Shown one piece after another: positions 2,996 through 52,936 of a stretch of DNA of 64,000 nt. The DNA comes from Eledone cirrhosa. Lineage: Eukaryota. The notes under the pieces are model-generated. The model searched no databases and was not told the origin of the DNA. It saw only the letters and a list, made by a program, of their open reading frames with translations. The stretch is from assembly GCA_964016885.1 (NCBI GenBank), contig OZ024740.1, forward strand, positions 92,442,001 to 92,506,000. Direction: 5' to 3'. Each line of letters begins with the position of its first letter. Positions within the stretch are counted from its first letter, which is position 1. The translations under genes and the position numbers were made by a program.

Positions 2996-3492
2996 AGATT
3001 TTCTTTTTTATAATAATATATAAGATGACTTATAAAATGACAATCAATCAATCATTTGGTGGTCTCCCCACAGCCCCGGTGGACAGAATGGAGATTATTT
3101 CCTCTAAACTAACTTTAGAGCTTCTCCATCAGTCAAATTAAAAATACATATTTGAATATGACCCCTAAAAGTATATTACATATTTATACTGCACTGTTTG
3201 GATTAATTTCATGAAATAGAAGCCTCTACCACAACACATAAATGCTGATTGGTCAACACCCATCAACAACATATCATCTCATCTCTAGAATGTTGAGACC
3301 TCAACTCAAGCGCTTATGATTTCTCTGTAATTTTGAATGCAGAAAACAGTAAAGCTATATATTTTTCAAATTACCAATTCAGATTTGTGCGACAGCTTAA
3401 ATCTGTAGGTAAGTACGAATCATAATTATTATTGATTTTCAACATTTTAAACTCCATAATTTTCACACAAACACTGTCCCCAAATCTCTCTC

Positions 3493-46600: not shown

Positions 46601-46760
46601 TGATGTTGTAGACGAATCAACAACGGCAGAGCAGAAGAAAGGGAAGGGAGATAAAACGAATTTTGTTTACAGATGTTATACATACACATTTTATTTTTCA
46701 TACCTACTTTTCGTACTTGTTGTACGAACGACGTATTGTTCTGTTGCTTTCCTTTTCTTT

Positions 46761-47525
46761 ATTCATCCAGATATTTTTTTAATAATAAATGACTATTGTT
46801 TTATTATTAAATAGATTTTTTTTTTTGTCATGCATATGCTATTATCATATATCGTTCATATATTTGTATGCATTCCTAAATTTTATTTCCACCGTATTCA
46901 ACCTTTTTTTCAGCAGGCTCCTTTCCAATTATCACTGTTAGATAGTAGAATTGCTGCTTTATTTCCTCATCTTGCTACTATAATTGTTTTTCTTGTTTAT
47001 TTGTCAGTCAGATAGAAGATGTTTTCTACTTTTCACAAATACTATAGGAGTCTGGTAGAAATATTGCTGATTTGCGTTAAAAAGTGAGATATTTGCGGAT
47101 AAATCAACTTTGACCATTTTACAGCTGCGTTAATATTAATTCATCCAGATATTTTTTTAATAATAAATGACTATTGTTTTATTATTAAATAGATTTGTTG
47201 TTTTTTTTTGTCATGCATGTGCTATTATCATTGTTCGTTCATATATTTGTATGCATTCCTAAATTTTATTTTCCACCGTATTCAACCTTTTTTTCAGCAG
47301 TCTCCTTTCCAATTATCACTGTTAGATAGTATAATTACTGCTTTATTTCCTCATCTTGCTTCTATAATTGTTTTTCTTGTTTATTTGTCAGTCAGATAGA
47401 AGATGTTTTCTACTTTTCACAAATATTATAGGAGTCTGGTAGAAATATTGCTGGTTTGCGTTAAACAGTGAGATATTTGCGGATAAATCAAAATTGACCA
47501 TTTTACAGCTGCGTTAATATTAATC
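46761..47525. repeat. ~380 bp tandem duplication, possibly within a decayed minus-strand PLE
   Basis: ATTCATCCAGATATTTTTT recurs at ~46761 and ~47139. ORFs 46830 and 47208 are paralogous. Confidence 0.88.
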
Positions 47526-48552: not shown

Positions 48553-49240
<688 letters not shown>

Positions 49241-49421
49241 ATATATATATATATATACAATACAAATAAATACACAGACACATGCGAATACATACATATA
49301 ATATATACCCACATATATTCCTGAATGTGTGTGGTGCCAACATTAACCGTTGTTGCTCTATGAATATTAGGGACAAAATAATCTGAATGTATTAGATTGA
49401 TTCAATATCAGAGATATATAA

Positions 49422-50368
49422 TCTATATATATAAAACTGTGTTTGTCTGTCTGTCTATCGATTTTTAGCACACATCTCCTCTTAGAATCTCTGACGGAAT
49501 TGCACCGAAATTGCTATACTTGTACATTGAGCCCTAGCGAAGACATCGGAAAAAGATATTTCAAATTCACCCACCCTATGTGACGAAATCGAATATAATG
49601 TATCGATTTTTGAGCGTAAGTTATCAGTTATTTCCATTTGTTCTGTTTACATTGAGCGTCTTACGTAAAAAATTACGCTGGCTTTCTCAGCGTTTAAAAT
49701 GACATTAACACAATACACGAACAGTTGTCGAGCCAGCAAAATATTGACCTGCAAAATTCATCAGTTCGAACACTAAGCTTCCGTTTTGCTTCATTTCCAT
49801 TTAAAAGCATTTTAAAACAATATGTTTACTTGAAAACAAGTCTATTTAAAGACTACGTAAAACAAGCAAATATTTCGTCGTTAGGCGTGCAGACAGACAG
49901 TCGTGCAGACAGACAGTCGTGCAGAGAGGTGATATACGCGTGCAGACAGATAGTCGTGGAGAGAGGTGATATAGGCGTGCAGACAGACAGTCGTGCAGAG
50001 AGGTGATATAGGCGTTCAGACAGACAGTCGTGCAGAGAGGTGATATAGGCGTGCAGACAGACATAACTGATAATTTAGTAACGCTAATGTTTTTCTCTGC
50101 GCTGCAGTGTTTACATTTTCGATCTTTGTTAATAAATAACCAGTGCAGTTTCTATCCCCAGCATCCTCTTTTGTTATAACATTCGGGTTATCGTTATGTT
50201 TTCTTAACTTCATAAGGCATATTGTTGGTTGAGGGAATATTAATCAAAAACACCACATGCAAGTCTGCACAGTAGGCACTACAGTTTTTAAGCCAAGAAA
50301 GAAACTTAACATTGTAACTTTAACACAGCTACTGAGCGACCCCGAGCAACGCCGGGCTTTACTGCTAG
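49422..50368 (+). mobile_element. Non-autonomous Helitron with internal minisatellite
   Basis: 5' TCTATATATATAAAA; 3' hairpin CCCGAGCAACGCCGGG then CTAG; inserted between A and T with no TSD. A ~33 bp GTGCAGACAGACAGTCGTGCAGAGAGGTGATATAGGC array lies at 49885-50062. Confidence 0.9.
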
Positions 50369-50961
50369 TACATTATAAAGAAAGAAGAAACATTAGATAT
50401 AAATAACAAGATATAATATACCTAAATTCCTTCAATATTCTCGACTACGTAGTTTCTTTGCTATTATGCAAAGCATTACATCATAGAGATGCAGTATTTT
50501 TGTGAGTTGTTTTCGACTTATCAAGAGGATAGCTCATTTAGAGTTCAAAACACGCCCGTAGGACGCGAGATAGAATCCCGAAAGCCGGAGGGGGAACTTA
50601 TCACGTGATACAGCGGTCAAGAAACAGAGCTAAGCCTCTTACAACCAAGAGAAAAATACCACAAAAGGCGGATGGGGTATTTATGTCAAGGCCGTAGAAG
50701 AGTTGTCTAGGAGAGCGAGAAGTGTGAGTAGTGTAAGCTTAACAGCAGTCACTACACTTAAGTGGTTACCATACCGTAGGTAGTTATAAGCAATACAAAG
50801 ACATATACATAGACATGCGAATACATGCATATACATGCATATACCCACATATATCCTTGGGTTTGTCTGGTGCCAACCTTAACCGTTTTTGCTCTATGAA
50901 TAATAGCGACAAAATAATCTGAATGGATTAGATTGATTCAATATCAGAGCTATATAATACA

Positions 50962-51932
50962 CTAGCAGTAAAGCCCGGCGTTGCTCGGGGTCGCTCAGTA
51001 GCTGTGTTAAAGTTACAATGTTAAGTTTCTTTCTTGGCTTAAAAACTGTAGTGTCTACTGTGCAGACTTGCATGTGGTGTTTTTGATTAATATTCCCTCA
51101 ACCAACAATATGCCTTATGAAGTTAAGAAGACATAACGATAACCCGAATGTTATAACAAAAGAGGATGCTGGTTATAGAAACTGCACTGGTTATTTATTA
51201 ACAAAGATCGAAAATGTAAACACTGCAACGCAGAGAAAAACATTAGCGTAACCAAATTATCAGTTATGTCTGTCTGCACGCCTATATCACCTCTCTGCAC
51301 GACTGTCTGTCTGCACGCCTATATCACCTCTCTGCACGACTGTCTGTCTGCACGCCTATATTACCTCTCTGCACGACTGTCTGTCTGCACGCCTATATCA
51401 CCTGTCTGCACGACTGTCTGTCTGCACGCCTATATCACCTCTCCGCACGACTATCTGTCTGCACGCGTATATCACCTCTCTGCACGACTGTCTGTCTGCA
51501 CGACTGTCTGTCTGCACGCCTAACGACGAAATATTTGCTTGTTTTACGTAGTCTTTAAATAGACTTGTTTTCAAGTAAAAATATTGTTTTAAAATGCTTT
51601 TAAATGGAAATGAAGCAAAACGGAAGCTTAGTGTTCGAACTAATGAATTTTGCAGGTCAATATTTTGCTGGCTCGTAATTTTTTACGTAAGACGCTCAAT
51701 GTAAACAGAACAAAGGGAAATAACTGATAACTTACGCTCAAAAATCGATACATTATATTCGATTTCGTCACATAGAGTGGGTGAATTTGAAATATTTTAT
51801 TTTTCCGATGTCTTCGCTAGGGCTCAATGTACAAGTATAGCAATTTCGGTGCAATTCCGTGAGAGATTCTAAGAGGAGATGTGTGTCAAAAATCGATAGA
51901 CAGACAGACAACCACAGTTTTATATATATAGA
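50962..51932 (-). mobile_element. Non-autonomous Helitron, same family, opposite orientation
   Basis: Near-identical reverse complement of 49422-50368, with more minisatellite units and a ~50 bp deletion. A|T insertion. Confidence 0.9.
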
Positions 51933-52322
51933 TTATAAAGAAAGAAGAAACATTAGATATAAATAAAAATATATACTATACCTAAATTCCTTCAATATCC
52001 TCGACTACGTAGTTTCGTTGCTATTATCCAAAATATTACATCATAGAGATGCAGTATTGTGGTGAGGTTTGCCGACTTATCAATAGGATACCTCATATAG
52101 AGTTTCAAAACACGTCCGTAGGACGCGAAATAGAATCCCGAAAGCTGGAGGGGGAACTTATCACGTGATACAGCAGTCAAGAAACAGAGCTAACCATCTT
52201 ATCTCTATAATGTAATGTTTTTGCATAATAGCCACAAAACTATGTAGTCAAGAATAATAAAGCAATTTATGTATATTATATCTTTTTATTCATATCTAAT
52301 GTTTCTTCTTTCTTTATAATGC

Positions 52323-52365
<43 letters not shown>

Positions 52366-52936
52366 AATTACAAAATATGAGGAAATAATAGACACAAATA
52401 TACCTATTTTTTCTTCAAAGTCCCGACTGAATTTTCGCCGATCCGCGTGCATCGCTATGAGGTTGATACGGCTTATCAAGGAACCCCTCAGAAAAAGGAC
52501 TATTTCTTGACGCGTTTATAGCAAGTGGGAAAGTCTCAGAGGCGGAGGGAGAGATTAACACGTGATACAGTGGTAAGAAAAAGGATAGTTTCTTTCGTAT
52601 CAAGTGAGCATTCCCGAAGTGGCGAGGAGTGACAACAAACATATGATACGGTGGTCACAGAAGGGTATTAAGGTGGACGAATAAACTATTTGCTAGAAAA
52701 AGCAGTTAATACACTCGTGGTTATATCGACCATAGGGGAGTTTTGGACAATATAATAATGAAATACACACACATATTCATATGTATATGTGTGTGTGTGT
52801 GGTTTCCGCCTTAACAAGTATTGCTCAATAACCAAAAGAGCCTTAATAACTAAAATAATTAAATTAACTTCAGTGCTATTTATCAAATTACAAAATATAA
52901 GAAAATAATAGACAAAAATATACCTATTGTTTATTC

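Follow-up and report, generated by a model that had tools for sequence, protein, structure and literature searches.

The window, by which we mean the whole stretch of 64,000 nucleotides (nt) analysed here (positions 92,442,001 to 92,506,000 of contig OZ024740.1 of Eledone cirrhosa; G000:C1:92442001-92506000 in a genome of 3.0 Gb), contains two copies of a non-autonomous Helitron, inserted in opposite orientations into adjacent copies of one repeat. The first of them, H1, occupies positions 49422..50368 on the plus strand (947 nt) and runs from 5'-TC to CTAG-3'; the second, H2, lies inverted relative to H1 at 50962..51932 on the minus strand (971 nt). The ends were located in the window sequence, and the termini of both elements are identical, starting with TCTATATATATAAAACTG and ending in GGGCTTTACTGCTAG. 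H1 and H2 agree at 875 of 894 aligned positions (97.9%), and the alignment is interrupted three times, by indels of 3, 53 and 74 nt. The longest of these corresponds to two units of an internal 37-nt tandem repeat, which a repeat search finds at 49883..50083 (plus strand) in H1, where the 74-nt indel falls, and at 51230-51525 in H2, which has two units more.

The host repeat has a unit of about 590 nt. Copy 1 is split by H1 into a left part (49250..49421, plus strand, aligned to copy 2), which ends in ...CAGAGATATATAA at the insertion point, and a right part (50369..50800, plus strand), for which homologous flanks are found at all 22 of the other loci where the same site is occupied. Copy 2 is split by H2 into a left part (50785..50961, plus strand, from repeat search and alignment), which ends in ...GAGCTATATAATACA, and a right part of about 270 nt (51933..52201, plus strand, from alignment), to which the right part at locus L032 is 90.9% identical over 274 nt. 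With the Helitrons excised, the two host copies agree at 401 of 441 aligned positions (90.9%) and are thus more diverged than the Helitrons that they carry, as the initial annotation had stated. A third, inverted and partial copy of the right part of the repeat follows at 52201..52331 (minus strand, from alignment), and beside it a (TA)n microsatellite (52325..52365) takes the place of the repeat's left part. This copy had been described as an empty site, and it does read TATATAATGCATTATAAAG on the minus strand as claimed, a perfect 14-nt palindrome with TGCA at its centre. However, it covers only the right-hand 130 nt or so of the repeat (identities of 116/130 and 113/129), and since (TA)n and not the left half of the repeat is found to the left of the site, it is to be seen as the unoccupied site of a truncated copy.

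The junctions in copy 1 read ...GAGATATATAA|H1|TACATTATAAAG, with a 5' side that ends in TATATAA, and those in copy 2 read ...GAGCTATATAATACA|rc(H2)|TTATAAAG, where rc denotes the reverse complement and the left side can also be given as TATATAATACA. In its own orientation, each element has an A on the 5' side and a T on the 3' side, without any target duplication. The two insertion points, which we call site 1 (H1) and site 2 (H2), lie 4 bp apart on opposite strands. Termini and alignments therefore bear out the arrangement first noticed, that is, two near-identical Helitrons inserted 4 bp apart and in opposite orientation into adjacent repeat copies.

In their ends and in their mode of insertion, the elements correspond to canonical Helitrons (HLE1). 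H1, H2 and most of the sampled copies of their family (see below) start with TC, and the 3' ends of H1 and H2 are of the CTRR type. The insertion takes place between A and T without duplication (A at position -1 in 70 of 71 flanks, T at position +1 in 80 of 80), and empty sites read ...TATATAA|TACATT.... The 5'-TC and CTAG-3' ends, the A|T insertion without duplication and the asymmetric target preference described below are shared with Helibat and Helraiser, which are canonical HLE1 elements as well. An imperfect 6-bp stem (CCCG.AG...CGCCGGG) stops 12 nt before the 3' end; it is weak, with a folding energy of -5.7 kcal/mol (z = -0.61) that 53 of 200 shuffled sequences reach equally well. No terminal inverted repeat is present in H1 or H2, whose ends are TC...CTAG. 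An identity as Helentron or Helitron2 (HLE2), that is, an element with T|T insertion and terminal inverted repeats, was considered and rejected, the 5' flank being A.

By the usual account, an A|T dinucleotide in AT-rich surroundings is all that a Helitron requires of its target and, to our knowledge, the choice of the target by the RepHel protein is an open part of the rolling-circle model. The family of H1 and H2 is large: in the genome, the last 21 nt of H1 are matched exactly at 3029 places (1490 forward and 1539 reverse), compared to none for the reversed control. For the calculation of a target logo we used the first 100 listed places of this 3' end, located on contig C1 between 0 and 108 Mb, a sample that is unbiased as to the flanks. 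Taking about 3 kb around each place, we obtained 95 distinct 3' ends, including the two of the window. After removal of Helitron-Helitron junctions and duplicate flanks, the logo set consisted of 80 flanks for the 3' side and 71 for the 5' side, all of them distinct.

On the 5' side, the logo shows T at -3 (40/71), A at -2 (44/71) and A at -1 (70/71). On the 3' side, the T at +1 (80/80) is followed by A at +2 (55/80), by the nearly free positions +3 to +6 and then by a block of A at +7 (64/80), T at +8 (65/80), A at +9 (65/80), A at +10 (58/80), A at +11 (68/80) and A at +12 (54/80); the remaining positions hold about 0-0.2 bits. When the window copies are excluded, the word ATAAA is found exactly at +7 to +11 in 34 of the 78 independent 3' flanks. 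In 9 further flanks it is shifted to +8, and at every other offset tested it occurs 0-4 times. In the background, T-N5-ATAAA is found at only 61 of the 15938 A|T sites of the window (0.38%; binomial p = 8e-61) and, in a second background set of 120 kb from other loci, at 59 of 23958 A|T sites (0.25%). Genome-wide, it follows 1064 of the 3029 family 3' ends (35%), and the enrichment of ATAAA over the background is 90- to 140-fold. The mirror word TTTAT at -11 to -7 was found in only 1 of 64 5' flanks.

The motif is a property of the target DNA and not of the element, since the uninterrupted site of the host repeat recurs in the genome: the 25-mer ATATAATRCATTATAAAGAAAGAAG, which spans the site, occurs 476 times, and the 14-mer AATACATTATAAAG occurs 751 times, compared to 180 times for its reversed control. 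Furthermore, copies with about 99% identity over their last 300 nt show free variation in the N5, which also assigns the motif to the target. In summary, the family has a one-sided target motif that, written in the direction of the element, reads (T)(A)A|T(A)-N4-ATAAA(A), and this motif is already present in the empty sites.

To score individual sites, we built a position weight matrix (PWM) without the window copies and used 15262 A|T sites as background. The median score of real insertion sites is 9.8 bits. At site 1 the motif T-ACATT-ATAAA-G lies 3' of H1 (50369..50380, plus strand), and the site as a whole (TATAA|T-ACATT-ATAAA-G, or A|TACATTATAAAG) is a perfect match with 11.75 bits, a score that is reached by 6 of the background sites. 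At site 2 the corresponding motif T-GTATT-ATATA-G lies 3' of H2 (50950..50961, minus strand), and the site (TATAA|T-GTATT-ATATA-G, or A|TGTATTATATAG) has one mismatch and 7.27 bits, a score that is reached by 303 background sites. The scores run parallel to the usage of the two sites, with 23 hits at site 1 and 3 hits at site 2. In other words, the near-palindrome TATAA-TACA-TTATA presents the perfect motif on its top strand, with the nick after TATATAA, and the motif with one mismatch on its bottom strand. The geometry seen in the window, in which two nicks are separated by a 4-nt centre, thus follows from a one-sided, orientation-tied motif that is present on both strands of a near-palindrome. 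The initial annotation had suggested sequence-specific targeting of TATAA|T on either strand. While sequence-specific targeting is indeed supported, most of the information is found downstream, in the ATAAA(A) at +7 to +12, and not in TATAA|T.

Both sites have also been used elsewhere in the genome. The Helitron end joined to TRYATTATAWAG has 48 matches, and 45 of the 46 places outside of the window were inspected. For the individual flanks, we count 23 matches for TACATTATAAAG, 3 for TGTATTATATAG, 3 for TGTATTATAAAG, 15 for TATATTATAAAG and 4 for TATATTATATAG. Genome-wide, 23 Helitron ends are directly followed by the site-1 12-mer; all 22 of those outside the window were confirmed to lie within the host repeat, so that site 1 is occupied in 23 host-repeat copies. 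The left junction (ATTGAYTC..CAGAGCTATATAA|TC) is identical at 17 of these 22 loci, and at the other five the 5' part is nested or truncated, or the left flank consists of (TA)n or (GT)n. Site 2 is occupied in three host-repeat copies, namely in the window and at the loci L138 and L139. Both flanks of L139 match those of site 2 in the window; L138 has the same 3' flank and a different 5' flank, which agrees with a determinant on the 3' side. L036 and L134 resemble L138 in that only their 3' flank is common with the other hits at their sites. Since both junctions of the window recur at other loci, they did not arise by chance. Of the 15 places with TATATTATAAAG, 14 were inspected, and L151 is the only one of them within the host repeat; the remaining places are unrelated loci, three of which share a further stretch of the downstream flank. 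The preference is therefore not tied to the host repeat.

The occupancy of the sites can be expressed in numbers. Site 1 is occupied in 23 of 774 cases (3.0%), compared to about 4e-6 per average A|T site, a value derived from the 3029 ends and from 0.249 A|T sites per bp. For the average A|T-N5-ATAAA site we obtain about 4e-4 (1064 ends per 2-3 million sites or so, a number extrapolated from two small backgrounds), and for the one-letter variant A|TATATTATAAAG 15 of 3484 (0.43%). The check that the initial annotation had proposed, a logo of the family flanks combined with a test for enrichment in this repeat, has thus given a positive answer on both counts, with a motif that extends beyond A|T and with 3.0% of the repeat sites occupied.

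Both sites of the host repeat have been hit repeatedly and independently, and H1 and H2 are not close kin. From these sequence comparisons, H1 and H2 most probably result from two independent insertion events in one young family of non-autonomous Helitrons that has a high copy number and a one-sided landing motif. We have weighed this reading against several others. For example, the identical junction at 23 dispersed places, in a host repeat that is itself multi-copy and rearranging, could have been inherited, if one Helitron had entered one copy of the repeat and the repeat had then spread with it. However, the tails of the Helitrons are about 99% alike and intermixed with those of copies from unrelated sites. 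In a tree of 138 tails of 300 nt, the site-1 label changes 20 times, compared to a mean of 19.8 after shuffling (314 of 500 shuffles were as low), and several of the site-1 tails have identical counterparts at unrelated places, whereas the host flanks at the 22 other site-1 loci are merely 73-93% identical to the window copy. Since the elements are scattered in the tree and the host flanks are diverged, we see here separate insertions of a young family into old copies of the repeat. Furthermore, the length of the elements at site 1 varies between 516 and 1365 nt, among them are structural variants that are found outside of the repeat as well, and a spread of the composite would be unable to yield the opposite orientation 4 bp away; we therefore consider it very improbable. 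The same holds for an assembly artefact, in which misjoined repeats or haplotypes would have created the tandem inverted arrangement. The region is repeat-rich and bordered by long microsatellites, but the two Helitrons differ at 19 positions and by 3 indels and the host copies by 9%, so that it is not one sequence used twice, and an inversion of H1 would put TACA on the wrong side. Given these differences between the copies, and given that other contigs show both types of junction as well, a misassembly is hardly to be expected. Public-run contigs over 49200-52400 (X4-X6 and X1) are mostly 50-90 nt long and repeat-piled, and none of them spans a Helitron; the joints and loose ends in them that resemble an empty site 2 are indistinguishable from hundreds of paralogous empty repeat copies.

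Another explanation is a local or regional effect, such that one of the window copies is the parent of the other, or that a resident Helitron favours a second hit nearby. The window does hold two Helitrons in adjacent repeat units, L139 also has two of them within 1.2 kb, and, as a rough inference, a double hit in one array would rarely be expected from rates of 3.0% and 0.4%. Kinship speaks against it: H2 is only the 53rd nearest to H1 of 79 other full-length copies, H1 is the 62nd nearest to H2, the distance between them (2.46%) is larger than the family median (1.6%), and they have just one rare variant in common. The two Helitrons of L139 are 4.6% apart, with mutual ranks of 69th and 39th of 80. 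Local hopping between H1 and H2, as considered in the initial annotation, does not fit such ranks, and we regard an effect of this kind as unlikely. Structure-directed targeting had been brought up as well. Here, the near-palindrome would extrude a hairpin or cruciform, and the nuclease would nick the stem-loop junction on either strand. In agreement with this, both nicks border the central 4 nt of TATAA-TACA-TTATA at their 5' edge, site 1 is used some 7-10 times more than the PWM predicts, and HUH nucleases are described in the text of the Helraiser study as acting on single-stranded DNA (PMC4778049). However, the predicted hairpins are weak (-2.1 to -3.2 kcal/mol, z = -0.75 to -1.2, with 27-41 of 200 shuffles equal), including that of the site itself (-2.3 kcal/mol, z = -0.75). 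At 64 independent sites, the complementarity between the 5' and 3' flanks does not exceed that with shuffled partner flanks (1.94 vs 1.96 pairs), and stems of at least 4 bp with a 4-nt loop are found in 1.6% of the sites compared to 2.2% after shuffling. Moreover, L138, L036 and L134 keep the 3' flank and differ in the 5' flank. A role of the structure thus appears distinctly unlikely to us.

If H1 and H2 are independent insertions guided by the motif, there is the matter of how the motif is read. Because it is found on the 3' side only, the strand that bears the motif would set both the position of the nick and the orientation of the insert. We infer that the RepHel transposase of the family reads the motif as its HUH nuclease nicks the target, at the step in which the nicked target is joined to the element, a step described in the text on Helraiser (PMC4778049). 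More speculatively, the reader of the motif might be STPR repeats, which bind AT-rich DNA, at the N-terminus of the RepHel protein. The complete proposal, namely that the rolling-circle transposase reads a fixed ATAAA box six bases past the nick through an N-terminal STPR array and that this dictates position and orientation, is tentative, and we would not call it probable. Should it be true, the reading of ATAAA by STPR repeats would be a natural, sequence-directed form of Helitron integration.

A candidate for such a protein is encoded in the genome. There are 3704 candidate places for Helitron_like_N, of which 150 were scored, all of them above the cut-off. An open RepHel frame of 1718 amino acids (aa) is found at L167/L168 (L167:7157-10000 and L168:1-2310; G000:C2:315526157-315531310). 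It contains 11 STPR stretches (Pfam STPRs, 185.7 bits), followed by Helitron_like_N (193.4 bits), PIF1 (217.1 bits) and a Pif1 2B domain, and at its N-terminus about 13 near-identical STPR repeats of 23 aa each form an array. The 5' end of the element, TCTATATATATATAAATG, lies upstream of the frame and its 3' end, GAGCGAAGCCGGGTAGCTCCGCTAG|T, downstream. A second copy at L171/L172 has 4.2 kb in common with it at 96.9% identity and the same 3' end. A BLAST comparison of H1 with six 20-kb RepHel neighbourhoods gave no match and no internal similarity. From their sequences, the STPR-bearing RepHel element and the H1 family share only the style of their termini, and we treat the former as no more than a candidate mobiliser. 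Apart from this, a more distant RepHel at L173/L174 aligns to the same region as the frame of L167/L168. Dozens of near-identical Helitron_like_N matches with the same open frame of 362 aa are found on C20 (3.5-5.2 Mb), C27 (13-15.5 Mb) and C19 (35-40 Mb), in runs that have a single orientation within the run and a spacing of mostly about 100-180 kb. These runs have the look of large segmental arrays in tandem, with a fragment of a Helitron in them.

STPR repeats are among the domains that the text of the HELIANO survey names as stably associated with HLE1 (PMC11417382), and the frame found here, with its 11 STPR stretches, Helitron_like_N and PIF1, is of the same kind as these STPR-carrying HLE1 elements. 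In its text the survey draws no link between STPR repeats and the choice of the target (PMC11417382). For the silkworm protein FMBP-1, the text of a published study describes STPR repeats that occupy the major groove of AT-rich DNA, with 4 bp per repeat, and counts (atac)n, (ataa)n and (taaa)n among the units that are bound best (PMC4856987).

Several observations weigh against independent insertion by the motif as the whole explanation, and against the proposed way of reading it. Two of the three site-2 hits (those in the window and at L139) have another Helitron within about 1 kb. The co-occurrence at site 2 is thus somewhat above independence, with neither pair closely related. Site 1 is about 7 times more occupied than A|TATATTATAAAG (odds ratio 7.1, Fisher p = 6.8e-9) and, roughly estimated, its rate of hits is about 10 times that of sites with an equal PWM score. 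The gap between site 1 and TATATTATAAAG is partly due to TAA, which is favourable on the 5' side; site 1 retains an excess of several-fold that lies beyond a matrix of independent positions, and a further determinant or an effect of the context remains. The logo is limited to copies with the exact 21-nt 3' end from one stretch of 108 Mb, and the background sets of A|T sites are small (64 kb and 120 kb only). The left end of the element itself has ATAAA at +10 to +14 and not at +7 to +11, so that simple mimicry of the left end by the target does not fit exactly. Finally, the STPR-bearing RepHel copy matches the H1 family at only 19 of the 30 terminal bases of the 3' end.

Insertion beside a short, one-sided sequence that fixes the orientation is a feature of IS91 and IS200/IS605, which use prokaryotic single-strand HUH nucleases. 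In these systems a tetra- or pentanucleotide directly abuts one end, whereas in the H1 family the word is found 6 nt away from the nick; also, they are prokaryotic, whereas the H1-family element is eukaryotic, with a RepHel protein. For Helraiser, the text of the study describes an AT-rich target preference that is strongest on the 3' flank (PMC4778049). A preference of this type is seen here too, with information at +2 and at +7 to +12 on the 3' side and only at -3 to -1 on the 5' side. Unlike Helraiser, the H1 family has ATAAA at a fixed distance, at +7 to +11, in 35% of the 3029 insertions, and its motif is strong enough for repeated hits at one base of a dispersed repeat. Note that the text on Helraiser speaks of A|T and general AT-richness, and that the logo in its Fig. 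5a could hold more (PMC4778049). The insertions of the wheat elements Xuan and Feng are described in the text as A|T only (PMC13286980). For the Helitrons at Paramecium chromosome ends, the authors propose an integration specificity, with fixed orientation and telomeric repeats (bioRxiv 10.1101/2025.11.06.686955). As described in the text of that preprint, and unlike the H1 family, these Helitrons have a telomere-repeat target, belong to a different clade and are without a downstream ATAAA. In the text of the open-access papers searched, we did not find a downstream target motif at a fixed distance for Helitrons; a published logo may nevertheless show something of the kind. The 3'-biased AT preference as such is already known from Helraiser, and the interest of the H1 family lies in the sharpness and the one-sidedness of its preference.

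About 3000 young copies with a one-sided motif are a natural data set for the question which part of the transposase reads the target. The motif explains the choice of the orientation, and also why one base in a dispersed repeat is hit repeatedly. If its reader is a separable DNA-binding module, for which the STPR array is a candidate, this would be relevant to the targeting of gene-delivery vectors based on Helitrons. In annotation, the motif helps to define the true 3' ends of the elements in the genome. On the other hand, it calls for caution, because identical junctions between a Helitron and a repeat are not necessarily inherited.

A number of further observations concern the family. At L139 (G000:C4:94562405-94565827) the second Helitron is inserted at a third point, the boundary of the repeat unit, and its flank T-ATTGT-ATATA-A is a near-motif again. 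Head-to-tail pairs of Helitrons with a perfect CTAG|TC junction, or insertions 3-5 nt upstream of a resident 5' end, are found at L025/L026, L110, L122 and L126 as well as at L004, L024, L068 and L092. At L126, the second element lies between the CTAG of the first element and the site-1 flank, which would fit a re-use of the site where the 3' motif survives the first insertion. A deletion derivative of 526 nt, in which the first 245 nt are joined to the last 281 nt, is present at L131, L132, L133, L136, L142 and L156. Since it recurs at host-repeat sites and at unrelated sites, this derivative has itself been mobilised. In run X1, which is labelled as another organism than X4-X6, contigs with a likeness of at least 97% give high depth over parts of the Helitron, most of all over its 3' third, and it seems that the H1 family or a close relative is present in the data of that organism.

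The host repeat forms tandem and inverted arrays, and both a foldback-like element and a dispersed satellite are candidates for its nature. Its arrays often end in an inverted partial right half, in which the copy starts exactly at the Helitron site and adjoins (TA)n. The combination of (TA)n with an inverted partial copy is also found at L044, L046, L048, L050, L057 and L059, and the breakpoints of the inversion vary between loci. Directly adjoining host copy 1 in the window, at 48553-49240, there is a near-perfect palindrome of about 690 nt. Its arms of 344 nt are 88% complementary, without a spacer, and the palindrome consists, in this order, of unique inverted arms, (CA)n/(TG)n and a central (TA)n. 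Further upstream, at 46758-47524, a unit of about 380 nt is present as a tandem duplicate with 94-96% identity.

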